Below, piece by piece: positions 20,567 through 35,855 of a stretch of 45,053 nt of DNA. A program made the position numbers and the translations under genes. This stretch comes from Escherichia phage Msk. The stretch lies in the sequence record MW057918; one strand, given 5' to 3'. A model generated the notes under the pieces. That model did no database searches and was not told where the DNA came from. It saw only the letters and a program-made list of their open reading frames with translations. Within the stretch, counting starts at the first letter, position 1, and each line of letters begins with the position of its first letter.

Positions 20567-23015
20567 AATAAATTTTTACATCTGGAGAAATTCCAACGCA
20601 AGTCCAGCGCGAGAACTTGGCATCATAAACGAATGACATTCCAATTTGTCTCCCCTCAGATGGAGTTGTGAATGAGCCAACTCTAAACTTATTGCTAAAT
20701 GAAACGGATGGACGCCGGCCGCCTGAAAGGTTGTAAATTATGAAGTCTATCCTCTGTGCATCTCTTGCGTTATCCTGAACATCAATAACTACAGGACTTG
20801 AATCAATTACAACGGTTGCAAGACTTGTTCTTAGTGGGTTAAATAGAATACTACCACCAGATAGCTGAACCCTTTTTTGAACGGGGTTAGAAGAATCCGT
20901 GTACAACCCTGTGTTTATATTATACAAAGCCTCCCATGAATTCAGTTTTGAGTCATCAATCACTGTTGCATACTGCCCAAATAGTATAGTCCCTTCTACA
21001 TGGTTTCCTGAAGCTCCATTATAAAAATCAAAACCAGAAGCTGATCCACCAACAAACCTATTAGCTCTAGCTCCGTTAACTTGAATTGATGGAGACTGAA
21101 AACCTGACTTCAGGCCATTGAACAAGTTTCCTGTCGCCGTCTTCCTAAGAACGACGTCACCACCAGAGTTGACCTCAAGGTCGCAACCAATAACAGTGTT
21201 AGTTACTGCTGTTATGCCTAGGTCTGACTCATGACCGAAAGAAAACCCATACTTATTTCCCTCGCTGGTTCCACCAATAAATGTCGTATTACTGCAGAAT
21301 GTAGCCTCAATTCCTGATTCTGTTACATGCTCGCAAGTTGGGTTAATAAAAAGATCTGCAGATGTGCCGCGGAAGTTCACAGCGCCAGCCTCTGCGTCAA
21401 TTAATATGCCGTACGTAGGCGTCGTTGTGAAGGTCTCAACGTTACCAGAGCACACAAAGTTATTATGCACGCATAGCTGAGTCCACCAGCAGTGTAAACC
21501 AGCCCTTCTAATGTTCGTAGCCATTAGGTTGTCAAAGCATGATGATATGACACCCCTTAATGAAAAGCCATCACTAGCATACCCATTCCCATCGACAATG
21601 ATGTTGCTCATATATGAGTTGTATGCCCAATAATCTAGGTTTACATCCCTATGATCCATTTGGATGACGTAATCATGAGGTCCGCTAGTTAGTGAGATTC
21701 TTGCGCCTTTCTCACCGATAATTGTTGCTGGCCTCAGAAAGTTTAATGGCTGAGATGTAAGATAATTACCTTTAGGAATATGTATAGCAATAGCGTTGTT
21801 TCTAGATGCCTCAACAGCGGCAAGCAATGCCTGAGTATCATCTGTTACACCATCACCAACAGCGCCAAAGTCCTTCTTAATATCGACATGAGTAAGTAAA
21901 GCGTTTACCTCTGGCTTTGAGTAAACATCAAGATTTGTTCTTGCTGCTGACTTATTTGCAACATCAGAGAAATTCAATGATTTTTGAAAAGTCTCATTTT
22001 TTGAATAAACATCAAGATTTGTTCTTGCTGCTGACTTATTTGCAACATCAGAGAAATTCAATGATTTTTGAAAAGTCTCATTTTTTGAATAAACATCAAG
22101 TAAGTTTCTAGCCCTCGATGCCGTAGCTCCACCTCCGGACTTGCCAGCCTCAACCATCACCATTTCCCTACCTGGTGCATAAACCCTGCTTCCGGGCGCT
22201 CCCACAAACTGAATGTAAATCTCCCTGCTATACTGGTTGCTTGTTGAAGATTGGCCTACAACTCGCAAGGAGTGCGTGGTTGTATTGCTTGACTTTGATA
22301 TTACCTGAATGCATAAAGCAGCAATTGATGTTCCAAATGTTGAGATTATGTCATTTGGAGCATTTATCATTGATGAAACGTTAACCATATAAAGGCCACC
22401 GGATTTAAAAACAAATTCCTGCCAATCAAAATTGCTTATCAATGGCGTAGTGTCTGTCGCCAATCCATATCCGGCAAGAGTTACCAACGTTCCGGCATCC
22501 CCGGCGTTATTAATTGCTTTAATCGTCTGATCTCTTGCTGCAGTGGTCGTGTCTCTTGCACTAATAGCAGTAGCGGCGCTCTCTTCGGCAGCAATCTGGC
22601 TAGCAAGAGCCTCAGCAGCTCCAGTGGTGGATTGTTTTGCAAGCTGCTCGAAGAGAGGCCAGTCGAAAGTGTCTTGACCAATAAATTGCAACAATCCTTC
22701 GATTGATGTCTCCTTTGACTGGTAGTAACGCAAAGTCTCTGCTACATCCTGAGCCAACCCCTGAACGGTAATTCCATCGTGCGCAAGAATTGCATAACCA
22801 GTTCCGGAAGGAACAGTTTCAGAGTTAGGGTTGTAAACATTAATCTGAGTATCGCTGATGATTTCAGAGATGGTATAAATCTTCAGGGGGCTGGTTTTAA
22901 AAATAATGGTTGCACCTACGCGAATAAGTGTAAGCGGTGCTTTCCATGTTGTACCCACGCCAGTTACCTCGCCATTTGCGGCCAGCGACGCTGTTCCTAA
23001 GTCATAAATTGCCAT
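20565..23015 (-). CDS. Tailspike with pectate-lyase-type beta-helix (putative polysaccharide depolymerase)
   Basis: ATG at 23015 with GGAGAA SD; DFGAVGDGVTDDTQAL signature of pectate_lyase_3-type tailspikes; internal perfect 28-aa tandem repeat. Confidence 0.7.
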   Translation of the reverse strand: MAIYDLGTASLAANGEVTGVGTTWKAPLTLIRVGATIIFKTSPLKIYTISEIISDTQINVYNPNSETVPSGTGYAILAHDGITVQGLAQDVAETLRYYQSKETSIEGLLQFIGQDTFDWPLFEQLAKQSTTGAAEALASQIAAEESAATAISARDTTTAARDQTIKAINNAGDAGTLVTLAGYGLATDTTPLISNFDWQEFVFKSGGLYMVNVSSMINAPNDIISTFGTSIAALCIQVISKSSNTTTHSLRVVGQSSTSNQYSREIYIQFVGAPGSRVYAPGREMVMVEAGKSGGGATASRARNLLDVYSKNETFQKSLNFSDVANKSAARTNLDVYSKNETFQKSLNFSDVANKSAARTNLDVYSKPEVNALLTHVDIKKDFGAVGDGVTDDTQALLAAVEASRNNAIAIHIPKGNYLTSQPLNFLRPATIIGEKGARISLTSGPHDYVIQMDHRDVNLDYWAYNSYMSNIIVDGNGYASDGFSLRGVISSCFDNLMATNIRRAGLHCWWTQLCVHNNFVCSGNVETFTTTPTYGILIDAEAGAVNFRGTSADLFINPTCEHVTESGIEATFCSNTTFIGGTSEGNKYGFSFGHESDLGITAVTNTVIGCDLEVNSGGDVVLRKTATGNLFNGLKSGFQSPSIQVNGARANRFVGGSASGFDFYNGASGNHVEGTILFGQYATVIDDSKLNSWEALYNINTGLYTDSSNPVQKRVQLSGGSILFNPLRTSLATVVIDSSPVVIDVQDNARDAQRIDFIIYNLSGGRRPSVSFSNKFRVGSFTTPSEGRQIGMSFVYDAKFSRWTCVGISPDVKIY
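21923..22100. repeat. Perfect 84-bp tandem duplication (2 copies plus 10-bp partial) inside tailspike coding sequence
   Basis: Identical 84-bp units at 21923-22006 and 22007-22090 seen directly. Confidence 0.85.
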
Positions 23016-23106: not shown

Positions 23107-24030
23107 GTCTATTAATTCGCTTGCTTTGTATATTCGCTTTCTTATGCCAGACTTGAAAAAATTATCATCATTTGGCATTACAACATCAAGATTGCGATCA
23201 TCAGCAACGGCAAGTAAATCAAAAGAGTGGCGAGTACAAGCGACGCGTAACTTGTAGTTTCTAAGCGCATAAGCAACCATTTCCATGTTGTAGCTGGAGT
23301 GGCAAACAAGCACGCAGCGGTTGCCACTAGCAAGATGAACGCGAACACCATCAATCCAATTATCGACCAGATAAGCGTACTCACTATCCTTAAAGGCACC
23401 AATAACAGCCACAGATTGGCGAGTATAATCTTTTGCAGCATAACTAACATCTCCCTCTTCATTTATAAAAATTACATTGCACATCTCATCTGACACGCCG
23501 TCACTATAAGCCATAAAGCACGGCACTGCGTGTATTAGTTCACCAGATTTAGCCCTACCAACATCAAAGCCGAACTCGCTATAGATACCCTCGTATATAC
23601 TGAGTGGAGTTGATTCTACTCTTTCCGTCCTTCCCATTATCTCTAAGCATCTTTCGTGGTCAATCTGAGCGCCCATTTTGTATGGTGATGTTCTTGAAGC
23701 TCTTTTGTTTGCTTTTGATATAACCTCTACTGGAACTAGATTCAGCCAATCACCAAGCGTATCTATTGTTTCACTATAACTCATTCCGGAACACTTCATT
23801 ACCCAACCAACACCAGAATCATTTCCGCACTGGTTGCATATTGCTGCGCCATTTCCCTTTTCCTGACCTAACTCATCAGTGAAGCGAAACCTATCCCTTC
23901 CAAAGCAGTAAGGGCACGGACCATGTTTCTTGCTGAGATTCTCCTTTGTCCATCCAAGGTGCGATGAGTAGAAATCACTCCACATTCCCTTCATTTTTGC
24001 TATCACTTCGTTCTTATCATGGTGACTCAT
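23104..24030 (-). CDS. Putative DNA primase (zinc-binding motif plus TOPRIM-like region)
   Basis: ATG at 24030 with GGAGGT SD; CPYCFG...CNQCG zinc-ribbon-like motif; acidic D-rich TOPRIM-like C-terminal half. Confidence 0.45.
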   Translation of the reverse strand: MSHHDKNEVIAKMKGMWSDFYSSHLGWTKENLSKKHGPCPYCFGRDRFRFTDELGQEKGNGAAICNQCGNDSGVGWVMKCSGMSYSETIDTLGDWLNLVPVEVISKANKRASRTSPYKMGAQIDHERCLEIMGRTERVESTPLSIYEGIYSEFGFDVGRAKSGELIHAVPCFMAYSDGVSDEMCNVIFINEEGDVSYAAKDYTRQSVAVIGAFKDSEYAYLVDNWIDGVRVHLASGNRCVLVCHSSYNMEMVAYALRNYKLRVACTRHSFDLLAVADDRNLDVVMPNDDNFFKSGIRKRIYKASELID

Positions 24031-24062
24031 AGTTACCTCCATAAACAATAAATGCACTATAC

Positions 24063-24102
24063 ACAATGTATAGCGCCACTGTTTATCAATTCGTGCTATT
24101 TC
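24063..24102 (-). promoter_or_regulatory. Motif-class promoter (variant AAATAGCACGAATTGATAAA, 22 bp, TATAGT) for primase
   Basis: Motif at 24086-24102 minus strand, hexamer 22 bp downstream. Confidence 0.4.
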
Positions 24103-24578
24103 CCTTGCTCTTTAGCTTTTCGCGCTGCCTCGTTAGCGGCCTTAATCTTGCGCCATGATCGACACTCTGTCTTGGTGGCTAATTCAGCCTCAGTAACAAC
24201 ACGCAGCATGTGACGCTTTTTGCAACGAAGAGTTAGCGGCTTCCCGTTACCGTCGAATTGCAAATCTGGTCGGCAGAATGTGGCGCGAAAACCTTCTCCA
24301 TTTCGCTTGTAGTAGTTGTGCGACAGCTGGGCGCCACGTGCCGATATCATGCCGCGCTTAAACCATTGTTCTACAGCCTGTGGTGTTACCTTTAACTGCT
24401 TTGCGATATTCGCCTTTGTGCCGAAGAAATCAAGAACTATCTCCAGGCGTGCCCGTAACCCTGCTCTTACTTCATCCTTTAAAACGTAGTAACCTGAAGG
24501 TCGTTTACGTTGCTTTTTGTCTTCAGTGCGGATAGTTCCGTTGTTGCCGTTAATGGTTCTCTTGTCGACTGTATTCAT
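24096..24578 (-). CDS. Putative HTH DNA-binding regulator (Cro/YdaS-like) with basic C-terminus
   Basis: TKANIAKQLKVTPQAVEQWFKRG helix-turn-helix-like segment; divergent from helicase gene. Confidence 0.45.
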   Translation of the reverse strand: MNTVDKRTINGNNGTIRTEDKKQRKRPSGYYVLKDEVRAGLRARLEIVLDFFGTKANIAKQLKVTPQAVEQWFKRGMISARGAQLSHNYYKRNGEGFRATFCRPDLQFDGNGKPLTLRCKKRHMLRVVTEAELATKTECRSWRKIKAANEAARKAKEQGK

Positions 24579-24679
24579 CTTATTACCTCAATAGCATTTT
24601 TTGTTAAAAGTAATTCTGATTTGATGTTAGTATTGTACTTAATTGAACGCTACAAGACAATTTTTATAGGAGTTTAGAT

Positions 24680-26674
24680 ATGTTGCCTATCGAGAAGCTG
24701 GTTGCAAACTTCGATAAAGAAAGAATCAAGCAGATTCAGAAAGATTACCAGTTTGGCGAGATAACCCCTTACGAATTCCAGTGCGTTACATTTGACGTAA
24801 TTGGGAAGGCTATTGGCAAGTACGAAGCGCCATTTATCGCAGACCTTTCCGTATCGGCTGGTAAGACAATCATTCTTGCTATGATTGGAAAGCGAATGGA
24901 GCAGCTTGGTCTTCCTTATATGGTTCTCTCTCGCCAGTCAGAGATAATCAGCCAGAACTCAGAAGAGCTTCGTAATTTCGGGATCCGTAACAGCGTATAT
25001 TGCGCTGGCCTTAACGTTAAATCAGTTTACTACCCAACCATAGTTGCTAGCGAAGGAACTGCGGCTAATGGCTTATTTAAGGGGCTTGGTGACTATGTTC
25101 CTGCCGTTATAGCTATAGATGAATGTCACATGCTTGATACCATAGATATTGTGGAAGCCGAAGAGAATGAAGAAACATTTGAGCAAATGAGCACAAAGAA
25201 GGGCGAGATGGTTTTTAAGGATGGCGTTAATACTGGATTGCTTGGTACTGGTCGTGCGCAGTACACGCTAATAATCACTGAGATGAAGCGTCGCTGCCGT
25301 GAAAAATACGGGCGGGAGCTTCGTATATTCGGCCTTACTGGTAGCCCTTATCGAAACAATGACCATATCGTCGTCAGCAATCCAAACATCCGTGGGTTCT
25401 GGCGAAAAGCTGTGATTCATGTTCCAACAAATTACCTTGTTGATTTGGGATTCGTGGTTCCTACTGTTTATGGCGAGGTTGGCGATTTAGGTTATGACCT
25501 TAGCGAGTTTGTTCCAGACGGTAGTGATGGCGTGAAAGACTTTAGCAGAAAAGAAATGGATGCAATGGTCGCAAAGATTCACGACAACCAAACCATGACA
25601 CAAAAGATAATGCAGTTTGTCGTCAAAATACTGGAGACTCGCAACGCCGCATTGGTCACCTGCGCCGGAAAACTCCATTGCAGCGAAGCGGCTTCCGCAC
25701 TGCCTGACGGATACCCTTACGCTATTATCACCGATTCTACCGGAGAGAGGAAGCGCAGAGAGATTCTTGCAGATTGCCAGACTGGAAAGTACAAGATTAT
25801 CTTTCAGATTGGATGTCTAACCACGGGTGTAAACCAACCGCTGTGGGATACTAGCGTCATACTACGCAAGATTGGCAGTCTAACCTTAATGATTCAGCTT
25901 CTTGGTCGTGGCATGCGAAAACTAAAAAAGGCGCACATAGATGCTGGGTTCAAGAAGGAGGACCACTTGGTATTAGACTTTGCCGGAGCGCTTGATGACA
26001 TGGCAGAGCTTTACTTTGACCCGATAATTGAAGAGATTCAGGCTGAAAAGTTTAAAACATCAAGGAGGAGTGGTGATGAGGTTCGCCAGTGTCCGCAGTG
26101 TGGATATGATAACTCGCCATTTGCTCGACGCTGTAGCAATAAGATTAATGGCGTTAGATGCGATCACTTTTTCCAGTTCACAACATGTGAGGATATTACC
26201 GACCAACAAACAAAGGCGGTAATCAAGAAAGGTTGTGGAACTAAAAATGACATAGCAGCAAAAGTTTGTCGTGAATGCGGAGAAATGCTTAAAGACCCAA
26301 ACGCTAACCTGACTGGAAAGATGTATCGTCGCGGAGACTATTTGCGTGTTTATGACTTCCAGGTTGGATTAAGCAAAAATAAAACTGGTATAGTAGTTAA
26401 GTATAATATCATGGCGCACAACGGAGAGAGGTTTAACGCGTGGGAGTTCTTTAACCCAGAATCAGACCATAGGGTTTGTAGTGTGCTTTGGAAAAACTTT
26501 TGCCTTGCTCACATTGAAAATCGCGCTGAAGCAGCACGGATTGGTAAAATTCGTAACGCAAAAATGATTATGATGAATGTAGATAAATTCCGTGCTCCAG
26601 TGCAAGTTACACACAGGAAGAACGGAAAGGGGAAGGATGTGATCGCATACAAGAATTTTGGAGAATTGAAATGA
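24680..26674 (+). CDS. SF2 helicase (DExH-box) with C-terminal Cys-rich zinc-finger-like region
   Basis: Walker A VSAGKT, DECH box, later helicase-C-like region, multiple CxxC pairs. Confidence 0.7.
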   Translation: MLPIEKLVANFDKERIKQIQKDYQFGEITPYEFQCVTFDVIGKAIGKYEAPFIADLSVSAGKTIILAMIGKRMEQLGLPYMVLSRQSEIISQNSEELRNFGIRNSVYCAGLNVKSVYYPTIVASEGTAANGLFKGLGDYVPAVIAIDECHMLDTIDIVEAEENEETFEQMSTKKGEMVFKDGVNTGLLGTGRAQYTLIITEMKRRCREKYGRELRIFGLTGSPYRNNDHIVVSNPNIRGFWRKAVIHVPTNYLVDLGFVVPTVYGEVGDLGYDLSEFVPDGSDGVKDFSRKEMDAMVAKIHDNQTMTQKIMQFVVKILETRNAALVTCAGKLHCSEAASALPDGYPYAIITDSTGERKRREILADCQTGKYKIIFQIGCLTTGVNQPLWDTSVILRKIGSLTLMIQLLGRGMRKLKKAHIDAGFKKEDHLVLDFAGALDDMAELYFDPIIEEIQAEKFKTSRRSGDEVRQCPQCGYDNSPFARRCSNKINGVRCDHFFQFTTCEDITDQQTKAVIKKGCGTKNDIAAKVCRECGEMLKDPNANLTGKMYRRGDYLRVYDFQVGLSKNKTGIVVKYNIMAHNGERFNAWEFFNPESDHRVCSVLWKNFCLAHIENRAEAARIGKIRNAKMIMMNVDKFRAPVQVTHRKNGKGKDVIAYKNFGELK

Positions 26675-27090
26675 ATATTACAGACAAAGTTGATTACATT
26701 GAGTTTTACCCGGGCCCGGTTAAGTCATGTCCTAAAGAGGATGACGAACAAATCTTTTGTTCTGATTGGGTTAAGTATAACTACCCGGATATGGTATTTT
26801 TCCACTGCGTGAATGAGGGTAAGAAAACCATTGGTCAAGCAAGAAAGGACCAGGCTAAAGGATTGCTTAAAGGGGTTTCGGACTGCTTATTCCTTATACC
26901 TGAATCACTGCGAGGCAAATACCCATTTGGCGCTATAGAGCTAAAGAGAGCAGGTAAAACGCAAGCTAGCCCAGTTAGCGATGAGCAGAAGTCATTCCTA
27001 AAAAGCGTAAGAGAATCAGGTGGCTTCTCCGCAGTAGCCTATGGCAGAGGTGGCTTTCTTGCAGCATTCGCAGAGATGATTCGAAAATAG
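26671..27090 (+). CDS. VRR-NUC domain nuclease
   Basis: GAIELKRAGKTQASPVSDEQKSFL pattern typical of VRR-NUC; overlaps helicase stop. Confidence 0.6.
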   Translation: MNITDKVDYIEFYPGPVKSCPKEDDEQIFCSDWVKYNYPDMVFFHCVNEGKKTIGQARKDQAKGLLKGVSDCLFLIPESLRGKYPFGAIELKRAGKTQASPVSDEQKSFLKSVRESGGFSAVAYGRGGFLAAFAEMIRK

Positions 27091-27133
27091 CACGAATTGC
27101 TAAAGACGAATCGGTGAGGTGGTGTATTATCAA
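27085..27133 (+). promoter_or_regulatory. Motif-class promoter copy 1 of duplicated block
   Basis: aaatagcacgaattgctaaag, 22 bp, tattat, leader catcgaaacgaaa. Confidence 0.45.
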
Positions 27134-27166
27134 CTCATCGAAACGAAACACTCACAAAAAAGGTGA

Positions 27167-27266
27167 GAAGTTGCAAACGTAGGCCGGAGCAACGAAAGAC
27201 GTTTCAAAATATGATGTGACAAACCCATGAGAAAGGAAGTTGCAAACGTAGGCCGGAGCAACGAAA
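27167..27266. repeat. Two direct copies of 31-bp element gaagttgcaaacgtaggccggagcaacgaaa (27167-27197, 27236-27266)
   Basis: Exact direct repeat 69 bp apart in a non-coding region; contains gttgc/gcaac inverted repeat. Confidence 0.8.
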
Positions 27267-27294
27267 ATCACATCATAATAAATTATAACTTAGT

Positions 27295-27343
27295 AAATAG
27301 CACGAATTGCTAAAGAGGAATCGGTGAGGTGGTGTATTATCAC
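27295..27343 (+). promoter_or_regulatory. Motif-class promoter copy 2 of duplicated block, driving 27377
   Basis: Near-identical to 27085-27150 (aaatagcacgaattgctaaag...tattatca...catcgaaacga). Confidence 0.5.
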
Positions 27344-27376
27344 TTCATCGAAACGAGACGCAGAGAGAGAAATAAA

Positions 27377-27571
27377 ATGTCTACTATCTTTACTGGTAAA
27401 ATCTACGAATCACGCAAAACTGGTTACGAGTATGAATTAGTAATCACCGCTGATGGTTATGTTCTTGACGATGGTGAAGGTTATTCTTTCGAAGTCAGCC
27501 CAACCTACAAAGATGATTTAGAAACTGTTAAAAACGAATTTGGCGAAAAATTTGATGAGATATCTGAATAA
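27377..27571 (+). CDS. Hypothetical small acidic protein
   Basis: ATG at 27377 after AGAGAGAAATAAA; ORF-track 5' extension would overlap the promoter. Confidence 0.45.
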   Translation: MSTIFTGKIYESRKTGYEYELVITADGYVLDDGEGYSFEVSPTYKDDLETVKNEFGEKFDEISE

Positions 27572-27789
27572 TGCAAATCTTAACCTTTGACAAACAATGG
27601 GAGCTATTTCAGGCAATGGCGGTTCAGGAGCTACACAATGCTGGTTATAAAGGTGACTCATGGTTTTTAGCAGGATGCCTTGATTACAGCTTTGAAGAAG
27701 ATTACTTGCGAACGGACATCGAAACATGGCGCGAACGCATGGTTGCAGACATTGCAGAAATGAAGAAAGATATCCCGGAGGATTTTTAA
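27571..27789 (+). CDS. Hypothetical protein
   Basis: 72-aa ORF coupled by ATGA-type overlap. Confidence 0.4.
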   Translation: MQILTFDKQWELFQAMAVQELHNAGYKGDSWFLAGCLDYSFEEDYLRTDIETWRERMVADIAEMKKDIPEDF

Positions 27790-27868
27790 CAATGAAAATC
27801 GTAGATAAAGAGATTTTCCAGATTGCTCAAATTTATGCGAAGCAAGCAGTTAGAGATAATGACAATTA

Positions 27869-28162
27869 TTGCTGGATGCTAGCAAAAGAGTATATAAAAA
27901 TGGCTTATGGCTTATGATAGTTGAAACCGGACGAGACGCAGTATGGGCGCACTGTGGAGAGGCGGGGTTGCAGGATGACATTAAGCAGATATCCCGCTTC
28001 TTTGACATAAAAGATATCAGCGTTGTGTTTAATGGTAAATTCTCTTACATGGATGAGCGACCAAGAAAATACGTAAGAGTTAAGCCAGGTGTGAGAATTG
28101 ATGTTAATGAGTTCCTTAAATCAAAGGGACTCAAGTTTAAGATAACGAATCCTAAGGATTGA
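27869..28162 (+). CDS. Hypothetical protein (true start may be the internal ATG near 27913)
   Basis: 97-aa ORF; alternative coupled start downstream. Confidence 0.35.
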   Translation: MLDASKRVYKNGLWLMIVETGRDAVWAHCGEAGLQDDIKQISRFFDIKDISVVFNGKFSYMDERPRKYVRVKPGVRIDVNEFLKSKGLKFKITNPKD

Positions 28163-28313
28163 TTATGAAGCCACAAGAATATTCAGCATTGGTTAACGGG
28201 TTGCTTGATATTTCTATAAAATTCAAGGACACGCAGCAGTTAAGAGAGCAGCTATCGCGAGAACTATCAAGGCATGGTATTAGGCCGAGACATAAGATGA
28301 AAAAGGATTAAAC

Positions 28314-28565
28314 ATGTTGGGTTTAGATTTTCAGCCAGATCATTATGATTTAGTTCATGGCAGTAGCGGTGCTAAGTTTAGGGCGATACCTATTGCTGAT
28401 TGGTTCCCACCTGATTATGTGGATGTTAATGCTAAGACGAAGGATGGTAAGTGGGTACATATTTACTACTCGCCAGCTTGCGGTAATCTATGCATGACAG
28501 ACCTGGACCAGAAATTAGCAATTAGTGCGGATTTAATTGATTATTGGTTGAAAGAGGTTGTATGA
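28314..28565 (+). CDS. Hypothetical protein
   Basis: 83-aa ORF. Confidence 0.4.
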   Translation: MLGLDFQPDHYDLVHGSSGAKFRAIPIADWFPPDYVDVNAKTKDGKWVHIYYSPACGNLCMTDLDQKLAISADLIDYWLKEVV

Positions 28566-28646
28566 AGTACGCCGCCCTAGTAGCATTAGTACCACTGTTT
28601 AGCTTTACTATCTTATATTTTATCGTGATGAACTAAGGACTTAAAA

Positions 28647-29777
28647 ATGGCAGTAGCAAAGATTACCAACGAGCAGCTTATCGAAGAGTTGAAAAATGGC
28701 ATGACTAACAAGGCGATTGCAGAGAAGTATGGCATGAACATTCGCAACGTCGAGCTTCGTCGCAGCAAGTTGGCTAAGAGTGGAGTTGGGCATGGTAATG
28801 AGGGTATCAATAAGCTAGTACCGGATGGATATTTAGTCAAGGGCACTTCAACCATGATTGATGCGGAAGGGAATGAGAAGCTGCGCTGGGTTAAGACGAG
28901 CGTTGATAATGAGCGCCTTGAGGTTTTAATGGAGCAAGCTCGAGAAGCGTTTTGCTCTGAGTTGCCAAAGGCAGATTCGGTCAACCACTCAGGTAATGAG
29001 GTCAATTCTGAATTAATGACTCTTTACCCGATTTTCGATATCCATATCGGCATGATGGCTCATCGACATGAGTCTGGTGAAAATTATGACACGAACACAG
29101 CAGAGAAATTGATGGGGTCATATTTTGACCATGCAATTTCTGTATCACCAGCCTCGGAGAAAGCCGTGATTTTAGTTGGCGGCGACTTCCTTCACTCTGA
29201 TGGACTGGAGGCTGTAACCCCAGCAAGCGGACACTGCCTTGATCAAGATAGTCGATATGCCAAGTTAGTTTATGTAGCAATTCGATCAATTCGCGGTGCG
29301 GTAGAGAAGATGCTTAAGAAACACAAGGAGGTCGAGATTCAAATCATAGAGGGCAATCATGATCAAAGTGGTATGATTTGGCTTCGCGCTGCAATGGCTG
29401 CATTTTATGAAAGAGAGAGTCGAGTGTTTGTTGATACCAGTCCGGCAATCATGCACAAGACGCGATTTGGCTCAACATTACTTGGTTACACGCACGGTCA
29501 CACGATGAAGAAAGCCGAGGGTCGACTAGCAGCAATGGCGACCGACTACCGCAAAGACTTTGGTGAATGTGAGTTTGTTTACTGCCACTCCGGCCATTTC
29601 CATCATGCAACTGTTACAGAGTGCACTCTTGGGATTGATGAAGTCCACCCTGCACTTGCTAGCAAGGATGCATATGCGGCACGGGGAGGGTGGAGATCAT
29701 ATCGACAAGCGGCTGCAATTATTTACCACAAGAATTTTGGCGAGGTTGGTCGACACATTTATCGCCCAGGTATGTAA
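28647..29777 (+). CDS. HTH domain fused to calcineurin-like metallophosphoesterase
   Basis: N-terminal MTNKAIAEKYGMNIRNVELRR HTH-like; MPP motifs DIHIG, GGDFLHSD, EGNHD, GYTHGH, GHFH. Confidence 0.6.
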   Translation: MAVAKITNEQLIEELKNGMTNKAIAEKYGMNIRNVELRRSKLAKSGVGHGNEGINKLVPDGYLVKGTSTMIDAEGNEKLRWVKTSVDNERLEVLMEQAREAFCSELPKADSVNHSGNEVNSELMTLYPIFDIHIGMMAHRHESGENYDTNTAEKLMGSYFDHAISVSPASEKAVILVGGDFLHSDGLEAVTPASGHCLDQDSRYAKLVYVAIRSIRGAVEKMLKKHKEVEIQIIEGNHDQSGMIWLRAAMAAFYERESRVFVDTSPAIMHKTRFGSTLLGYTHGHTMKKAEGRLAAMATDYRKDFGECEFVYCHSGHFHHATVTECTLGIDEVHPALASKDAYAARGGWRSYRQAAAIIYHKNFGEVGRHIYRPGM

Positions 29778-29851
29778 ATAGTACTTTTTGTTAATAAAGC
29801 CTCAAAGGATTGAGGCAAAATGAATAAACGATAAAGAGATGAGGAATTGTA

Positions 29852-30325
29852 ATGATTTACGTATTTGATATCGATGGAACTATAGCTAATAATGAGCATA
29901 GAAGTAACCTCTTGCCATTCAGCGACCTTCACTTGACTTCAAGTTGGAAGGATTACAATAAAGCCTGTTCTGGAGACTCACCAATAATTCCAATGATAAA
30001 CATGATGAATACGTTATCCGACTCATCGCCAGTTTACATCATGACCTCAAGAAGTGATGAAGTTGAATGGAGGACTCTTGAGTGGCTTAAGGATAATGAG
30101 GTTGAGTATGATTCGATATACATGAGAAGTCGATATGACAACCGAAAAGATTACAAAATAAAAGAGGAATGGCTTAATGAAATCAGTGGTGGCGATAAAA
30201 GCAATGTGATTATTTTTGAAGATAACCCACAAGTAATTAAGCACCTAAGAAGTTGCGGATACACCGTTATGGCTGTATGTGAATATGAAGACCTACCTAA
30301 AGACTGCGAATCTCACGGAGAATGA
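29852..30325 (+). CDS. HAD-superfamily phosphatase (T4 Pnk 3'-phosphatase-like / nucleotidase)
   Basis: Motif I FDIDGT at N-terminus; C-terminal FEDNPQV...GY pattern resembles T4 Pnk phosphatase domain end. Confidence 0.55.
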   Translation: MIYVFDIDGTIANNEHRSNLLPFSDLHLTSSWKDYNKACSGDSPIIPMINMMNTLSDSSPVYIMTSRSDEVEWRTLEWLKDNEVEYDSIYMRSRYDNRKDYKIKEEWLNEISGGDKSNVIIFEDNPQVIKHLRSCGYTVMAVCEYEDLPKDCESHGE

Positions 30326-30879
30326 AAATGACTAAATTATTTATCCTTAATGGCCCAGCTGGAGTTGGCAAGGACACTATAGCGGATATGATGGTTGAGA
30401 CTGGTGTCGCAAAAGAAAAGGTATCATTCAAGTCACCAATATTTAGAGTTGCAAAAGGAATGCTATCAAGCGATGAATTTGATGAATTCATCAAGAATTA
30501 CGACAATAGAGACTATAAGGAATCACCTCATAGATTTCTTGTCGGTATGACAGTTCGTGAATTTATGATTTGGATTAGCGAGTCTGTAATGAAGCCAGCC
30601 TTTGGTGATGATGTTTTCGGTAAAAGGCTAGCGCAGTCACTTGGTGATGGCTGCTACATTTGCGCTGACGGTGGATTTGCTAGCGAGATTAAGCCACTGA
30701 TCGACGCTGGTGTTGAGGTCACGTTAATCAGATTGCATAGGGCAGGGTACACATTTGATGGCGATAGTCGCTCATACATTCACGGGGTGTGCGCAAGAGA
30801 AATTGATGTTCGTGTTGTTGATTGTGATATTAATGGAACATCAGCATTGGTAAGGCACGTAATAAATAGCACAAATTGA
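30322..30879 (+). CDS. P-loop kinase, deoxynucleoside-monophosphate-kinase-like
   Basis: Walker A NGPAGVGKDTIAD resembles T4 gp1 dNMP kinase P-loop SGVKRSGKDTTAD; 4-nt overlap with HAD gene. Confidence 0.45.
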   Translation: MKMTKLFILNGPAGVGKDTIADMMVETGVAKEKVSFKSPIFRVAKGMLSSDEFDEFIKNYDNRDYKESPHRFLVGMTVREFMIWISESVMKPAFGDDVFGKRLAQSLGDGCYICADGGFASEIKPLIDAGVEVTLIRLHRAGYTFDGDSRSYIHGVCAREIDVRVVDCDINGTSALVRHVINSTN

Positions 30880-30909
30880 TAAAGATAATAATAAAAACTT
30901 AGTTATCAT
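30864..30909 (+). promoter_or_regulatory. Motif-class promoter (variant AAATAGCACAAATTGATAAAG, 22 bp, TATCAT)
   Basis: Variant motif overlapping kinase stop; leader acatcgaaacgag. Confidence 0.4.
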
Positions 30910-30950
30910 TAACACATCGAAACGAGATTAACTAAACGAGGAAACACAAA

Positions 30951-31127
30951 ATGACTAAAATGATTTATTGCACCAAAAACAACTCCAAGACTCTGCCATT
31001 TACAGTTAACCAGCCGTACAACGCAGAGTACCAGGGCGATGGATATTACAAGATTTATGGAGACGATATGACGCACATCTTAGCGCCGATTGATGGTTCG
31101 TTGGTTGAATTTATTATCGCTGACTAG
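30951..31127 (+). CDS. Hypothetical small protein (58 aa; not in ORF track)
   Basis: ATG with GAGGAAA SD downstream of motif promoter; translation done by eye. Confidence 0.35.
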   Translation: MTKMIYCTKNNSKTLPFTVNQPYNAEYQGDGYYKIYGDDMTHILAPIDGSLVEFIIAD

Positions 31128-31152
31128 CGCAGCAAAAACATAATGTTACGAA

Positions 31153-31180
31153 CGGGGAGCCTTTTGGCTCCCTTTTTTTA
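31153..31180 (+). terminator. Rho-independent terminator
   Basis: ggggagccttttggctcccttttttt. Confidence 0.7.
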
Positions 31181-31257
31181 TGCTTCTTTTCCGAGCGGTG
31201 CTAATGTATCATTCTTTTATTAACTTAAGAATTGACAAATACATAAAGGTGGATCAC

Positions 31258-31473
31258 ATGAGGGAAGTAATCAACGCCGCTACAGCATCAACTGGCGGTG
31301 CTGCGTTTACTGGAGCGGCAACTGGTCAAATGACTATAGCAATAATCAGCCTTATCGCTCTAATCATTTTTGGAGCTTGGGGTGCTTACTGGAAGTATAA
31401 GGATAGTCAAGCTATCAGGCGGGCGCTTGAATCTGGAGACTTGAAAATAGCAATCAATATAAGGAGCAAATAA
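31258..31473 (+). CDS. Putative holin (single TMD)
   Basis: ATG at 31258 after AAAGGTGGA; 71 aa with hydrophobic segment and charged C-terminus, immediately upstream of endolysin. Confidence 0.5.
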   Translation: MREVINAATASTGGAAFTGAATGQMTIAIISLIALIIFGAWGAYWKYKDSQAIRRALESGDLKIAINIRSK

Positions 31474-31959
31474 ATGAAGCAGAAGCTGCTAATTGGCGCG
31501 GCTACGGCTGCGGCGATATACATCGCAGCGCCGCTTGTTGAGCTCGTTGAGGGTGTGGAGAATAATCCTTACATGGACATTGCCGGAATCCCTACGGTAT
31601 GTTCCGGTATTACTGGACCTGATGTTGTTTGGGGTAAGACTTACAGCAATAGGGAGTGCCGGAACCTACTGGAGAAGCACATCCAGATTCATGCTAAGTA
31701 TGTTCAGGATGCGGTTACTTACCCAATTGCACAGCAGACAAGGGCAGCGTTAATTAGCTTTAGCTACAACGTTGGTGGTCATGCCATGAAGAACTCAACG
31801 GCAGTTCGACTTATCAACCAGGGTAAAGTGGAGCAGGGTTGCAAGGCTCTCGGAATGTGGAATAAGGCTACCGTTAATGGAAAAAAGGTTGTCGTTAAGG
31901 GTTTGGTGAATCGCAGGAATGAGGAGATTAAGTTATGCTTAAGCGGATTGCAGCGTTAG
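31474..31959 (+). CDS. SAR endolysin (T4-lysozyme-type catalytic E-D-T triad with N-terminal signal-arrest-release domain)
   Basis: Hydrophobic N-terminus LLIGAATAAAIYIAAPL followed by E-x8-D-x5-T pattern. Confidence 0.7.
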   Translation: MKQKLLIGAATAAAIYIAAPLVELVEGVENNPYMDIAGIPTVCSGITGPDVVWGKTYSNRECRNLLEKHIQIHAKYVQDAVTYPIAQQTRAALISFSYNVGGHAMKNSTAVRLINQGKVEQGCKALGMWNKATVNGKKVVVKGLVNRRNEEIKLCLSGLQR

Positions 31960-32324
31960 TAATGTGCGTAGCTTTATCTGGATGTTCAGCAACATCTGCT
32001 CTGACCGGCTTGATTGGCAGTAAGCCAGAGATTAGCGCTCAAGCTGGTGCAGAGAACAATAAGATTGGGGTTGGGTTAACTAATAAGGTTGACTCCAGTA
32101 ACTCAAGTGATGCTTCCGTTAAGGATTCTAGTGTTGGCTCTCTGGATAGCTCTAGCGGCAAAAAGACCTCTGACAACTCGATTAAGGCATCCACAATAAC
32201 TGCTGAAAAGATTGAGATCACCAATAACGACTCTTCCGCTCTTCCGTGGATTGGAACAGGGGCTATGGGGTTGCTGGTTTTTATTCTCCTGGCAGTAATC
32301 TTAAGACGTAAAAAAGCCCCTTGA
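31935..32324 (+). CDS. Unimolecular spanin (N-terminal lipoprotein signal plus C-terminal TMD), T1 gp11-like
   Basis: Lipobox LSGC near N-terminus, Ser-rich periplasmic region, C-terminal TMD then RRKK; overlaps endolysin 3' end. Confidence 0.6.
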   Translation: MLKRIAALVMCVALSGCSATSALTGLIGSKPEISAQAGAENNKIGVGLTNKVDSSNSSDASVKDSSVGSLDSSSGKKTSDNSIKASTITAEKIEITNNDSSALPWIGTGAMGLLVFILLAVILRRKKAP

Positions 32325-32345
32325 TAGGGGCTGTATATTTTTATC
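32310..32345. terminator. Bidirectional terminator between lysis cassette and minus-strand genes
   Basis: aaaaagccccttgataggggctgtatattttt. Confidence 0.55.
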
Positions 32346-32356
32346 TACAACTAACT

Positions 32357-32569
32357 TTAAAGTGGGATTAACTGCATTGATTCCACTCTAATTTCAATCC
32401 CGCGCACAAGTCCTTCCAGGCTTGTGGTGATGAATGACTCCGATACGTATCCACCATCAGAGATGGTAGCGATAATGTCACCATCACCCTGCTCTTTAAT
32501 ATCCACGGTCAGGAGGTTGGCTTTTGCTTTTGCAAGTACTGCCATCAGTTTTTCTACTGTGCTCATTTT
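32357..32569 (-). CDS. Hypothetical small protein
   Basis: Start taken at Met of MSTVEKL; ORF-track extension rejected. Confidence 0.35.
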   Translation of the reverse strand, partial: KMSTVEKLMAVLAKAKANLLTVDIKEQGDGDIIATISDGGYVSESFITTSLEGLVRGIEIRVESMQLIPL

Positions 32570-32676
32570 ATATACTCCTGTCTTAATATTATTTTCGGGT
32601 TGGCTTTTAAGCACCCGCGCTTCGATGGATTAATAATAGCAAAAGCCCTCTAGGGGCTTTTAACAAAAAGGGCTAT

Positions 32677-33012
32677 TTAATAGAATAATTCGTCGTCAGT
32701 CATTTTTCCTATGTTCATCATCTCTTTTATGTACTTGCTCTCATACCCGCTAAGTGACTCAAAGTTGAAGCTAAATGGCCTATTTAAACTCCCCTTGCTA
32801 ACAAACTCCCCACACTTACCATCAATGTATCCAGCAGTTAACATCTTTGCGCAAAACTCCTTTGAAGCAGCGCTGCAAAACTCTCTATGCGATAACCCTG
32901 CCGCCTTGCTAAATCTCTTAGAATCCTTATGTTGGTAGATGAATCGCGCCAAATGCTGGCGCGTGAAATAGGAATACGACTCGCAGAACTTAAATATATC
33001 GAGCAGGAACAT
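32677..33012 (-). CDS. Hypothetical protein
   Basis: 111-aa ORF. Confidence 0.4.
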   Translation of the reverse strand: MFLLDIFKFCESYSYFTRQHLARFIYQHKDSKRFSKAAGLSHREFCSAASKEFCAKMLTAGYIDGKCGEFVSKGSLNRPFSFNFESLSGYESKYIKEMMNIGKMTDDELFY

Positions 33013-33101
33013 AATTAACTCCAGGATATGCTTAAAACAACTACGATACCAAAAATCAATACAAAGAAATCAAGCAATATAAGTAGAATTTCAATCATCT
33101 A

Positions 33102-34685
33102 TCACCCCAGCAGTCGTGGATTAATGTAAACTTTATCACCAATCAGGCACGTATAGTTTTTCTCATCAAGCATTGGTAGTAAGTGGTCTTTAATCTTCGT
33201 CATTACTCCCGCTTGACCCTCGAACGGCTTAACCTTGCGAGCAGCTTCATATAGAGACCGGATGCCTACTACGCCTTTCCCATTTTTTACTTGCTTAATC
33301 AGAATATCAATCAGCTTATTCATCTCTGCATTGTCGCCAGCGTGACCCGCAGCGTTGGCAGATGACAAATAAGTCTTGCTAAGTTCCTGGAACATAATTA
33401 CAGCTTCCTGCATTGTATCAAGCTCAATTTCTCTCGACTTCTGAGGGCTACCGCCATTTGGGTTGAACCAGTTACGCACAGTGTGAAGAACCGCCGCAAT
33501 CCTGATTGCCTGCTTATCGAACTTACCCAACGCGCCTCGCAACATTGTGTGTGAATACTTCCCGCCGTCAGCAAGGTGCGGTTCCATTTCCTGACGAGCG
33601 CGGTTGAGATATTTCATTGCTGAATTACTAACTGTCAACTTAACTTCTTGCTCATTCATTATCTCGTGAACTAAACGGAAGTAATCAGCCTTCAACCCGG
33701 CATCAATTGGCTCATAAGTCGATTCGCCATTTTCATCAACGAATACACGCTCGCCCAGGAGTGACTTTTCACGTACAAGCAGGAAACGCTCAGATACACC
33801 GATACCACGCGCGCCAGCGTTCATGATAGCGTTGATTGTCTCATCCTGCGCAATTACAGAGATGCAACCCATAGCTACGAAGCTCATGTTGTTTTCAGCG
33901 TTAGCACGAGCGATAGATACGTTGCCAGCATCCCATGCCTTCAGTACAAGCTCGCTGTTCGTTTTCTTTGATCCGTCACCATAGGTCATGCCAAGTAGTG
34001 AGTTTACACTCGTTGCCTCATCCGAGATTACTGCAAAGTTACCCTGACGATTGTTTATTCGCGCAAGACCTTCCGGTGTGGTATCTGAAACCGGGAAAAC
34101 GATATCGCATAGTTTCTCGAGCTTTTCCTCAAGATCTTCTTTCTCCTCAAAAAGCGATTTCATCTCAGATGGTGACTTTTCCTGCTTCATCTCTTTGGAT
34201 AACGCAGATAGTTTAGCCATAATCTTTTTGCGCTCGCGCTTTCGAACTTCATTCAGTCGCTGAGTCTCGGCAATCATTGGCGCAATAGAAAGTGAGTTAA
34301 TTGCTGATTTACCAGTCGATGGTGGCTGACTCGTTACGACGTAAAGCGAGGTTGGCTGCTGAGTTCCGTGATACTCTACGGTAAAACGTCCAAGCATGGC
34401 AGCGGAAATACACCCCAGGAAGTGCATGTATGCGGACGACTCCGGGAATTGCACGCTCCGAGCAATGTTAGCTGACAGCTTACCAACAACATCAATATCA
34501 TTTCCGAGTGATATTACAGGGTACTTATCATTTGCCGCATCAATCTCGACAGGAGCCTTCCAGAATGATTGAGACTGGCGATAGCCATTTGCATTAATAG
34601 CGACGCGCAAAGGTGGAAGGTTGTCTGCGGCAGCAATTGCCATAACCTGTTCAACAGATAGTTTATCTTCGTTGAAATCAAACAT
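33102..34685 (-). CDS. P-loop NTPase of unknown function (possible replication-associated ATPase, DUF3987-like)
   Basis: Walker A-like SQPPSTGKSA and Walker B-like FAVISDEATS; N- and C-terminal segments duplicated in pseudogene 37864-38283. Confidence 0.4.
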   Translation of the reverse strand: MFDFNEDKLSVEQVMAIAAADNLPPLRVAINANGYRQSQSFWKAPVEIDAANDKYPVISLGNDIDVVGKLSANIARSVQFPESSAYMHFLGCISAAMLGRFTVEYHGTQQPTSLYVVTSQPPSTGKSAINSLSIAPMIAETQRLNEVRKRERKKIMAKLSALSKEMKQEKSPSEMKSLFEEKEDLEEKLEKLCDIVFPVSDTTPEGLARINNRQGNFAVISDEATSVNSLLGMTYGDGSKKTNSELVLKAWDAGNVSIARANAENNMSFVAMGCISVIAQDETINAIMNAGARGIGVSERFLLVREKSLLGERVFVDENGESTYEPIDAGLKADYFRLVHEIMNEQEVKLTVSNSAMKYLNRARQEMEPHLADGGKYSHTMLRGALGKFDKQAIRIAAVLHTVRNWFNPNGGSPQKSREIELDTMQEAVIMFQELSKTYLSSANAAGHAGDNAEMNKLIDILIKQVKNGKGVVGIRSLYEAARKVKPFEGQAGVMTKIKDHLLPMLDEKNYTCLIGDKVYINPRLLG

Positions 34686-34742
34686 TACTTCTCTCCGTGT
34701 TGTTTCTGAGAGGCCATTATATCAACGACCTCTTACAATTCA

Positions 34743-34761
34743 TTATCAATTTGTGATATTG
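34743..34761 (-). promoter_or_regulatory. Degenerate motif-class promoter (ATATCACAAATTGATAAT, 22 bp, TATAAT)
   Basis: Half-motif followed by tataat at 22 bp on minus strand upstream of 33102-34685. Confidence 0.3.
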
Positions 34762-34871
34762 GTTGTTCTTAATCCACTTTAGGCACATCCACAATCCAGC
34801 CCCATAAAATGCAATCTTAAGAATTTCAACCAACAAAAGGATAATAAAGTAACCACCACCAAGTAAATCAA

Positions 34872-35111
34872 TCATTTTTTAATCTCCATTTCCACAATTT
34901 CATAACTTATGTAATTATTTATCATTCCAATAAGTGATTTTTGGTATGTTTTCATATGCTCCCTAGCGGAATCTTCATCAAGATGCGCTGATATGTTGTG
35001 AAAATTGTATTCATAATCCATGCCCATTAGTATGTATATCTTATCGTGCGCCTTAATGAGGTTATTTGATTTTATTTCCCCAAGCGACCATCCTTTTCCT
35101 TTTCTAATCAT
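34872..35111 (-). CDS. Hypothetical protein
   Basis: 79-aa ORF. Confidence 0.4.
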   Translation of the reverse strand: MIRKGKGWSLGEIKSNNLIKAHDKIYILMGMDYEYNFHNISAHLDEDSAREHMKTYQKSLIGMINNYISYEIVEMEIKK

Positions 35112-35461
35112 TTGTATTGAGCCTCAAATCGATAGTCGCCGCAAACTGTAACAAAGCCAACATCTTCGTCACGATATAGCTGCCAGGCGCTGCCCTCTTT
35201 ATCGTAAATGTATCCAGCACGCTGCCCAAGTCCAGCATGGAGATCTACTTGATATCTCTTCCCTTCAGTGAAGTACTTACGAATGGATGAGCGATGATTA
35301 ACATTTGTGCAGTAAATGGTCTTTGTCTTGATGTACTTGCCCCGCTCTTCAAGGTTAATCCATTTTCCATCTTTCTTGATTTGCTCTACTCCATTTTTAA
35401 CGCGAGCTTTATAGAGTACATTTTCGTTGCTGATCCAGTTTTTAGTTAGTGTAGTAGTCAT
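35108..35461 (-). CDS. Hypothetical protein
   Basis: 117-aa ORF with 4-nt overlap. Confidence 0.45.
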   Translation of the reverse strand: MTTTLTKNWISNENVLYKARVKNGVEQIKKDGKWINLEERGKYIKTKTIYCTNVNHRSSIRKYFTEGKRYQVDLHAGLGQRAGYIYDKEGSAWQLYRDEDVGFVTVCGDYRFEAQYK

Positions 35462-35621
35462 TTTGTTACTCTCTTAGTTGTCCACATGAATTTGTTAGGT
35501 ACTGATTTGCGCACGATTCGCACAACAATCTTGTCAACCTTCTGAACTAAACCGTAAATCTTTCCATCAGGTGAGGCTCGGTAAAAAGCCTCATCAATTG
35601 CGTCATTAAAGTTGTCGAACA

Positions 35622-35801
35622 TTAAATCTCTACCTTAACGTCAAACTCTTCAATAAGATAATAATCAGGACCAATTTCAAGATCTTTATCGATACCTGAT
35701 AGTCTATTTTTTTCCAATTCAGCCAGTTCATATGTATCAAAAACACCAAAAATTTCAAAACCGTCATAGTTAGTGTAACCATTAAGTATGTAAACTTTCA
35801 T
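35622..35801 (-). CDS. Hypothetical small acidic protein (MKVYI family; paralog of 19254-19403)
   Basis: 59-aa ORF not in track; downstream of motif promoter at 35856-35874. Confidence 0.4.
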   Translation of the reverse strand: MKVYILNGYTNYDGFEIFGVFDTYELAELEKNRLSGIDKDLEIGPDYYLIEEFDVKVEI

Positions 35802-35855
35802 TTTTTATCTCCCGTTTAGATGAGATGAATATACAGGAAAAGCCCCTGAAGGGTT

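Follow-up and report, generated by a model that had tools for sequence, protein, structure and literature searches.

Phage TLS carries a 21-nt intergenic repeat, aaATAGCACnnnTTGnTAAAA (DR in what follows), about 76 nt before start codons; the same repeat has also been reported in T1, Rtp and Rogue1, and the TLS study leaves its function as an open question (PMC11447400). In T4-type phages, repeated promoter cassettes known as PeSL flank small accessory genes, and recombination at them leads to insertions, deletions and replacements between close relatives (PMC2839356). The put RNAs of phage HK022 are about 70 nt long and have two stem-loops; located just after early promoters, they are cis-acting and bind to the beta-prime zinc-binding domain (PMC9378689). 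Here we describe a block of some 290 bp (27085-27376) in Escherichia phage Msk (record MW057918, hereafter OzMSK; the window is this whole stretch of 45,053 nt), in which two DR promoter cassettes enclose two exact copies of a 31-nt sequence. OzMSK is an Rtp/T1-like member of the Drexlerviridae (megablast; PMC13035648), and the block is flanked by a VRR-NUC gene, ending at 27090, and a small conserved gene. Rather than a DNA repeat element, it is an accessory unit of transcription for a structured RNA, and we are highly confident that this RNA structure is under selection.

The original prediction had picked out two near-identical promoter cassettes, two exact 31-mers each containing a GTTGC...GCAAC inverted repeat, and a position after the helicase and VRR-NUC genes, all of which were borne out. 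A repeat search placed the 31-mers at 27167-27197 and 27236-27266, the only two copies in the window (none expected from 100 shuffles), as the identical first part of a longer repeat (27167-27211 and 27236-27280). A perfect 10-nt inverted repeat around the second 31-mer (27210-27219 and 27268-27277) had been missed. The features are listed below; the two domains are termed u1 and u2, and their helices P1, P1a and P2.

27140-27205, plus strand: RNA domain u1, a three-way junction (minimum-free-energy and centroid folds)
27140-27145 (GAAACG) with 27200-27205 (CGUUUC), plus strand: P1 of u1
27151-27155 (CUCAC) with 27163-27167 (GUGAG), plus strand: P1a of u1
27170-27174 (GUUGC) with 27189-27193 (GCAAC), plus strand: P2 of u1
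27175-27188, plus strand: 14-nt loop of u1, with an inner C-G/G-C step pairing 27178-27179 with 27185-27186
27167-27197, plus strand: first copy of the 31-nt repeat, comprising the final P1a base, AA, the entire P2 hairpin and GAAA
27210-27277, plus strand: RNA domain u2, a three-way junction (inverted repeat, fold and covariance model)
27210-27219 (UAUGAUGUGA) with 27268-27277 (UCACAUCAUA), plus strand: P1 of u2
CAAAC after the 5' strand of P1 and GAAAA at 27263-27267, plus strand: junction strands of u2
27225-27226 (CC) with 27235-27236 (GG), plus strand: P1a of u2
27239-27243 with 27258-27262, plus strand: P2 of u2, with its loop at 27244-27257
27236-27266, plus strand: second copy of the 31-nt repeat, the P2 hairpin of u2 with its flanks
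27278-27294, plus strand: AT-rich linker, unstructured on folding, between the RNA module and promoter copy 2

Each 31-nt ‘iteron’ is a P2 hairpin with its flanks, one from each of two tandem RNA domains. Across homologues the common unit consists of P1 (4-10 bp), the junction (C)AAAC, hairpin P1a, AA, hairpin P2 (5-bp stem, 14-nt loop AAACGUAGRMCGGA), the junction GMAAA and the 3' strand of P1. Folding of the region, a check that had been proposed with the original prediction, gave two tandem junctions for the whole OzMSK leader (z = -4.0). The leader of the Klebsiella jumbo phage K64-1 likewise folds into two tandem junctions (z = -4.35) with wholly different P1 and P1a; its u1 (P1 GAAAG/CUUUC, P1a AAUCCA/UGGAUU) has the architecture of OzMSK u1, as does u1 of phage TH27. 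The first units of OzMSK and TH27 fold as full units, with P1 GAAACG/CGUUUC and a longer P1a, CUCAC/GUGAG. A covariance model (R1) built without OzMSK u1 recovered that unit over the full model length at 45.2 bits (E = 2e-9) and scored u2 at 86.8 bits. When each unit was folded alone, 15 of 19 gave the shared three-way junction.

By blastn and pattern scans the module was found in 13 phage genomes and one human-gut metagenome contig. The central 150 nt retrieved by blastn only TH27 (Nouzillyvirus) and Salmonella phage FSL SP-126 (Tlsvirus); these two as queries added Webervirus F20, Solomon and VAC2, Tunavirus Shfl1, ULIM2 and ECO104 4-5-2, Hafnia phage TS33 (Guernseyvirinae) and, weakly, K64-1. 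Three Klebsiella jumbo phages, K64-1, RCIP0023 and Muenster, have a complete two-unit copy each. The carriers span five Drexlerviridae lineages, TS33 and the ~350-kb Klebsiella jumbo phages, and the motif is present sporadically, in one or two tandem copies, in virulent Enterobacterales phages. In every carrier it is the first structure after, and co-oriented with, a predicted early-type promoter, which is of the DR type in Drexlerviridae, TTGCAA-17-TATAGT in TS33 and a consensus TTGACA-16-TATAAT in K64-1.

Beyond these phages the searches were essentially silent. T1 has no copy, and the module is absent at this locus in phiA2-1, CY1, TR1-3, ES and the other nearest relatives of OzMSK. Pattern scans found none in 5,426 complete E. 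coli genomes or in PLSDB plasmids, and none in the genomes of 185,579 prokaryotic species (GTDB, one genome each), where four matches without stems were due to chance. Metagenomes (JGI, ENA) gave one real match, the human-gut contig. In IMG/VR, corrected patterns returned only the isolates SP-126, F20 and Shfl1, the exact hairpin 24-mer had no match, and the 14-mer loop alone had about 120 chance matches. Rfam 15 (4,227 families) gave nothing at gathering thresholds in the window besides a tRNA-Arg, nothing relevant at E <= 10 on 27000-27450 and nothing at E <= 1 on the K64-1, TS33 and Shfl1 loci; ARAGORN found no tRNA or tmRNA in the block. That tRNA-Arg (anticodon TCT, 40479-40556) is the only Rfam or ARAGORN match of the genome. 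In the literature searched, the loop sequences and the DR 19-mer were not found, the OzMSK paper does not discuss the block (PMC13035648), and no transcriptome of a T1-like phage was found. Given the lack of a match in Rfam, the literature, E. coli, PLSDB or the species genomes, the motif family appears to be previously undescribed, rare and confined to virulent Enterobacterales phages.

How the helices change between these phages bears directly on selection. A small non-coding RNA had been among the candidates of the original prediction, and a covariance search in related phages among its proposed checks; the candidate was supported, with two three-way-junction domains and covariation across the 13 phages. 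In an alignment of 12 full units (A2), 93.1% of cells are paired, falling to 23-40% after the 3' partners are slid by 1-3 columns; compensatory changes on both sides occur in 11 of 18 pairs. The covariation score was reached by none of 500 shuffles; of the two controls, only the slid-partner one corrects for relatedness. From the alignment of the 12 homologous units alone, RNAalifold independently returned helices P1, P1a, P2 and P2b. Invariant columns number 33 of 71. On the transcribed strand the 12-unit alignment has 13 G.U cells, as against 3 A.C or C.A cells, which is how wobble pairs of the other strand appear.

The P2 hairpin combines the two kinds of constraint. Fifteen distinct hairpins use eight stem sequences, among them GUUGC/GCAAC, GCGGU/ACCGC, GGGGC/GCCUC, GUGAU/AUCAC and GCGUU/AACGC, all of them 100% paired and with both-side changes in four of the five pairs, and 10 of the 14 loop positions do not change at all. 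Within the loop, the pairs C4-G12 and G5-C11 are invariant, and positions 3 and 13 change together from A/G to G/U in the gut-contig u1 and, independently, in K64-1 u2. This pattern suggests that the loop contains a short inner helix with a UAGNN pentaloop at its tip.

These results also bear on whether the block acts as DNA. An iteron origin, a single-strand initiation signal or a titration site would suit a block lying directly after helicase and VRR-NUC genes, with exact repeats of internal dyad symmetry and, in OzMSK, a minus strand that folds about as well as the plus strand. Iteron origins usually have at least three repeats, in helical phase, with an adjoining AT-rich unwinding element. 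The block has just two repeats, at a period of 69 bp (62-71 bp in homologues), and they covary as hairpins instead of keeping their sequence; such compensation in the stems is not predicted by a double-stranded DNA binding site. The wobble pairs favour the transcribed strand, and other phages place the module among small early genes rather than by replication genes. T1 and the closest relatives of OzMSK replicate without the block, which is therefore not an essential origin. On these grounds the iteron-type origin and protein-titration site put forward in the original prediction were abandoned. It had also allowed for a recent neutral duplication; absence from close relatives agrees with that, but conservation with covariation in distant phages, over three unrelated groups, excludes neutrality. 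Taken together, a DNA-level element or neutral duplication is highly improbable.

A small protein-coding gene was ruled out as well. The spacing between units is 62, 67, 69, 70 or 71 nt across phages, which covers all three values modulo 3, so that no reading frame can carry both conserved cores. Minus-strand open reading frames (ORFs) of 39-58 aa overlap the block, and the sole frame open in other units, a pyrimidine-rich one on the minus strand, is interrupted by a stop codon in OzMSK u1. The stem substitutions are compensatory and have no period of three. The leader of the first promoter had been expected to run for about 200 nt with only tiny ORFs; the plus strand indeed has no ORF of at least 30 aa between 27151 and 27323, but the predicted leader up to the ATG at 27377 measures about 240 nt. 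ORFs have been annotated across the element in other phages, namely Shfl1p06 (minus strand; 1413-1643 of the locus extract), VAC2 QZE50433 (52 aa; 1459-1617 of the locus extract) and ULIM2 WPJ69992 (1378-1587 of the locus extract). Because no frame carries both cores and u1 contains the stop, these are probably spurious, artefacts of open purine- or pyrimidine-rich frames of the motif. ORFs of this kind over the element are the only protein ‘clusters’ common to most loci.

Two 31-nt repeats 38 nt apart behind a promoter are superficially like a mini-CRISPR, a solitary repeat unit or ToxI-like repeats. Here, however, the two repeats differ within SP-126, Shfl1, ULIM2, ECO104, K64-1 and the gut contig with pairing kept, and the ‘spacer’ between them is a conserved structural element, made up of the 5' strand of P1, CAAACCC and P1a. 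The period is 62-71 nt, E. coli genomes and plasmids contain no similar repeat, and neither a toxin gene nor a terminator follows the repeats.

Further candidates for the fold and its partners were considered and set aside. A hammerhead ribozyme shares the type-III topology, but the CUGANGA core is lacking and Rfam is silent; a K-turn in P2 would fit on the non-bulged strand, but the bulged strand has CG where GA is required (both by inspection only). Kissing loops through GGCC/CCGG palindromes were dropped, the palindromes being lost in Tunavirus, ECO104 and gut-contig variants. The loop core GUAGGCCGGA (27175-27188 and 27244-27257) is presumably identical with the start of the REP consensus of E. 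coli. Pairing with host REP was rejected: loop positions 9-10 vary among homologues (GC, AC, GA, AA), as in an apical pentaloop and unlike an antisense seed, and the likeness is therefore taken as a coincidence.

The promoter cassettes that enclose the module form a 70-nt direct repeat with 91% identity and a spacing of 210 (repeat search), in agreement with the near-identity noted at the outset. They and the first downstream gene are as follows.

27080-27149, plus strand: promoter cassette copy 1, resident (repeat and motif searches)
27085-27104, plus strand: DR of copy 1, aaATAGCACgaaTTGcTAAA (21-nt T1-type), followed by a 20-nt spacer
27125-27130, plus strand: -10-like TATTAT of copy 1, followed by the conserved initial transcribed sequence CATCGAAACGA
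27290-27359, plus strand: promoter cassette copy 2, with its DR at 27295-27314 and its -10-like TATTAT at 27335-27340
27377-27571, plus strand: first downstream gene, 64 aa (MSTIFTGKIYESRKTGYEYEL...), conserved in phiA2-1 and ES

The spacers of the two promoters are identical, and the 24-nt spacer/-10 core, AATCGGTGAGGTGGTGTATTATCA, has exactly two copies in the window (0 expected; 100 shuffles). Transcription is predicted to start at about A27137 from copy 1 and about 27347 from copy 2; across the carriers, P1 begins some 3-15 nt past the predicted transcript start. Both cassettes belong to a genome-wide set. The motif AAATAGCACGAATTGCTAAAGA occurs 11 times in the window at up to 3 mismatches, and about 15 full DR cassettes, with the motif AAATAGCACGAATTGCTAAA, are each aimed at a gene, in the order DR, ~20 variable bases, TAtnAT hexamer, conserved ..CATCGAAAC.., purine-rich ribosome-binding site and start codon. 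Tested against the DR consensus, 27085-27104 and 27295-27314 fit with 0 mismatches and are co-oriented with the downstream gene; as in TLS and T1, both copies stand in the standard orientation with a standard -10-like hexamer downstream. The DR copy at 27087 is the sole one with a long leader, ~240 nt to the ATG at 27377. Whereas the TLS/T1 repeat usually lies ~76 nt from the start codon, the distance at copy 1 is ~290 nt because the RNA module has been inserted. A terminator scan found no plus-strand terminator-like site between 26346 and 31154, and the linker at 27278-27294 has no terminator-like hairpin with a U-run.

Some observations on the DR cassettes stand apart from the module. They occur at 16797(-), 17552(-), 19179(+), 24099(-), 27087(+), 27297(+), 30866(+), 32676(-), 35872(-), 36712(-), 38624(+) and 39670(+), among others. 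The conserved DR 21-mer contains the palindrome TAGCA-N5-TGCTA, which would be centred at about -41 relative to the predicted start, as class II activator sites are; with 22 nt between its TTGCTA and the -10-like hexamer, the distance is too great for a sigma-70 -35 element. Reading the DR as a sigma-54 promoter was rejected, by inspection only, since TAGCAC-N3-TTGC is wrongly spaced and GG is lacking. A DR-type cassette (~80 nt, ~80% identity) is also found in rV5-like and large E. coli myoviruses (V5, APECc02, Schickermooser). The spacer/-10 region GGUGAGGUGGUGUAUUAUCACUUCAUC (27110-27140 and 27320-27350) would form a long G.U-rich hairpin if transcribed, which for copy 2 would arise in read-through RNA from promoter 1.

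Comparison with relatives indicates how the module entered this slot. In phiA2-1, CY1 and TR1-3 (~85% identity) there is a single promoter, continuing ...catcgaaacgaaacac-acaaagagag..ATG. Sequence up to ...catcgaaacgaaacac is common to OzMSK copy 1 and to the phiA2-1/ES promoter at the same position, and copy 1 is therefore the resident promoter to which ~210 bp were added, matching the 210-bp insertion of OzMSK relative to phiA2-1. In ES the same slot holds a promoter, a 62-aa ORF, a second DR promoter and the conserved gene; in phiA2-1 it is empty. Copy 2 combines the DR and leader flavour of the second ES promoter (leader ...catcgaaacgagacgcagagagagaaataaa) with the spacer of copy 1, a mosaic that is the expected product of unequal recombination between DR cassettes. 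Independently, K64-1 differs from RaK2 by a 192-bp insertion that carries a consensus promoter and the two-unit RNA just upstream of the resident promoter. We consider the near-identical second promoter to be probably the scar of a cassette insertion by recombination between repeated promoters.

The RNA thus behaves like mobile cargo of an accessory kind, equipped with a promoter of its own. The genes downstream of it in the carriers belong to at least four unrelated families, and no neighbouring protein that might be a dedicated partner is common to all carriers. In Shfl1 and F20 the module stands before genes annotated as similar to T1 orf75 and orf5, which in T1 follow a bare DR promoter in ~78-nt gaps. 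The OzMSK/ES/phiA2-1 slot and the K64-1 and RaK2 indel share the PeSL pattern, in that repeated promoter cassettes bound the indels and replacements between relatives. The cassettes differ in content. The repeated PeSL cassette includes a stem-loop terminator, whereas that of OzMSK is a DR promoter without one, and no terminator-like site lies in or beside the DR cassettes at 27080-27360. The PeSL stem-loop is part of the repeated joint; here, in contrast, the cargo is the structured RNA itself, whose loops are conserved and whose stems covary.

The same comparison affects the annotation of the first downstream gene. Its homologues in phiA2-1 and ES directly follow a DR promoter and start, after a GAGAGA-rich ribosome-binding site, at an ATG equivalent to 27377. 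The GenBank coding sequence (CDS) CPTvBecoSOzMSK_052 (27329-27571) has its annotated start at a GTG at 27329, within promoter copy 2. Given the start of these homologues, the product is probably 64 aa rather than 80 aa.

The window holds further repeats. An 84-nt unit is tandemly duplicated with 99% identity at 21916-22083; internal repeats and assembly variability are described for the tail-spike gene in the OzMSK paper (PMC13035648), and the duplication may lie within that gene. Dispersed repeats were seen at 17616-17716 and 36965-37065 (101 nt, 78% identity) and at 38879-38928 and 39072-39121 (50 nt, 80% identity), the latter pair looking like the beginnings of two small paralogous genes (GTGAATAAGATGATTAC...).

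How the RNA acts is a matter of graded likelihood. In the explanation that we favour, and to which as a whole we give even odds, the resident DR promoter (copy 1) would transcribe about 140 nt that fold into two tandem three-way junctions, and the module would form the 5' end of a long mRNA isoform reading through promoter 2 into the operon at 27377. The invariant loop and junction nucleotides would then offer a docking surface for a component common to all hosts, for which RNA polymerase, an RNase, an RNA chaperone or a small ligand are candidates, and docking would give the transcript 5'-end protection, stability or altered elongation. In cis, the module would sequester the 5' end and recruit a factor, either to the transcript or to the polymerase.

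Action in cis as a leader, rather than in trans, is favoured by the lack of a clear terminator, the nearby ribosome-binding sites and the position of P1 3-15 nt from the 5' end, and from the sequence we would put its likelihood somewhat below one half. No carrier copy precedes a clear intrinsic terminator, and in nine phages an ORF has its Shine-Dalgarno sequence within ~10-40 nt downstream of the module. In TS33 the single unit adjoins a hairpin, AGCAGG..CCUGCU, followed by ACUUUUAA (1491-1590 of the locus extract), which is a weak terminator-like site with four U and the sole case of the motif abutting an expression-platform-like element. Because the stems have fully diverged while loop and junctions are constant in three phage groups, the partner would most likely be either a small ligand or a host component that Escherichia, Salmonella, Klebsiella and Hafnia share. 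We know of no dedicated RNA-binding protein common to the three carrier phage groups.

Several points weigh against this account. All promoters and start sites are predictions, and the partner or ligand is hypothetical. The homologues have no expression platform, with neither a terminator nor sequestering of a Shine-Dalgarno sequence, and invariant loops are needless for a plain 5' stabiliser. Two ECO104 units, SP-126 u1 and the gut-contig u1 have no convincing P1. Close kinship or recent transfer of cassettes links many of the 13 genomes, so that independent substitution events are far fewer than the cells counted. Finally, a trans-acting RNA is an equally good fit to the layout in OzMSK and K64-1, where the RNA is served by a promoter of its own and the next promoter follows without an intervening ORF.

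Such a trans-acting accessory RNA, cut from the transcript or accumulating from it, would titrate or decoy a host protein, with an RNA-binding regulator, a nuclease or a defence sensor as proposed targets; it would be the non-coding counterpart of the small early anti-host genes in the same slots. Besides the self-contained promoter-plus-RNA insertions just mentioned, this is supported by the small accessory ORF that occupies the slot in ES and by the sporadic spread over Drexlerviridae, a Guernseyvirinae phage and jumbo phages, the usual distribution of accessory or anti-host cargo. Invariance of the loops implies a specific partner shared by the four host genera, and one or two copies are present, as expected of a titrating element. 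Yet no terminator or other defined 3' end occurs in any phage, and most phages have the module joined to an mRNA, only a few nucleotides ahead of the Shine-Dalgarno sequence. No host RNA in the genome and plasmid sets that were scanned is alike, so the module is not a host-RNA mimic. Its specific form as a CsrA sponge was rejected, GGA not being conserved and the K64-1 u2 loops having none. We regard action in trans as less likely than action in cis, though the layout in OzMSK and K64-1 makes it a serious contender.

A rival explanation is a nascent two-hairpin domain that would, in cis, bind the very polymerase transcribing it and suppress pausing and termination downstream without a protein factor, as HK022 put RNA does. 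Like putL and putR, which are phage-encoded, ~70 nt long with two stem-loops, located after early promoters and independent of the downstream gene (PMC9378689), the units measure 60-70 nt, carry two hairpins on a closing stem and begin a few nucleotides after the predicted start. A gene-independent function would match the unrelated downstream genes, and adding a promoter with its module before a resident promoter would make sense; T1-like genomes are also rich in intrinsic terminators between gene modules, and in TS33 the terminator-like hairpin directly follows the unit. The motif differs, however, in being a closed three-way junction with a conserved 14-nt loop, often in tandem, whereas put is not tandemly duplicated. 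No terminator context is evident: Shfl1 has no terminator within 1.5 kb downstream, the first plus-strand terminator of OzMSK lies 3.8 kb away, beyond two more DR promoters, and T1, equally terminator-rich in layout, has no module. Sequence or structure homology is also lacking, with no Rfam match and no match of R1 at E <= 1 in HK022 24000-40751, a segment that we take to contain the PL/PR region, put sites being unannotated in the record. A put-like mode of action is accordingly a doubtful one.

Tandem riboswitch aptamers, sensing a metabolite or an ion and tuning early genes, would account for covarying helices with invariant junction and loop nucleotides, for the location in a 5' untranslated region and for the tandem copies, features shared with riboswitches and orphan Rfam-type motifs; tandem aptamers are known in several riboswitch classes. 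Against this stand the missing Rfam match and the absence of any expression platform in the homologues, OzMSK and K64-1 lacking even an adjacent ORF. The motif is confined to phages and absent from the bacterial genomes scanned, and the unrelated downstream genes have no apparent metabolic logic. A riboswitch is thus a distinctly improbable identity for the module.

To our knowledge, few structured non-coding RNAs have been described from virulent coliphages. The motif stands out for combining covariation with near-invariant unpaired nucleotides across T1-like siphoviruses, a Jersey-like phage and jumbo phages. Its 14-nt loop and junction nucleotides are kept in three unrelated phage lineages on four enterobacterial genera, a pattern that points to a specific conserved host target or ligand. 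The locus is also a concrete example of the 21-nt repeats of T1-like phages serving as recombination joints that swap small early cassettes, and it corrects the annotation, in that the ORFs called over the element are almost certainly spurious and the OzMSK CDS that starts in promoter 2 is probably overlong. More speculatively, and on balance as the less likely outcome, the module may belong to a new class of effector RNAs with which phages act directly on a conserved host machine, and may move between phages as a promoter-plus-RNA moron. If so, and if the target were RNA polymerase, it would join put as a second type of factor-independent antiterminator, with an unrelated structure; alternatively, the target would be an RNA-targeting defence or decay enzyme, blocked by a decoy RNA.

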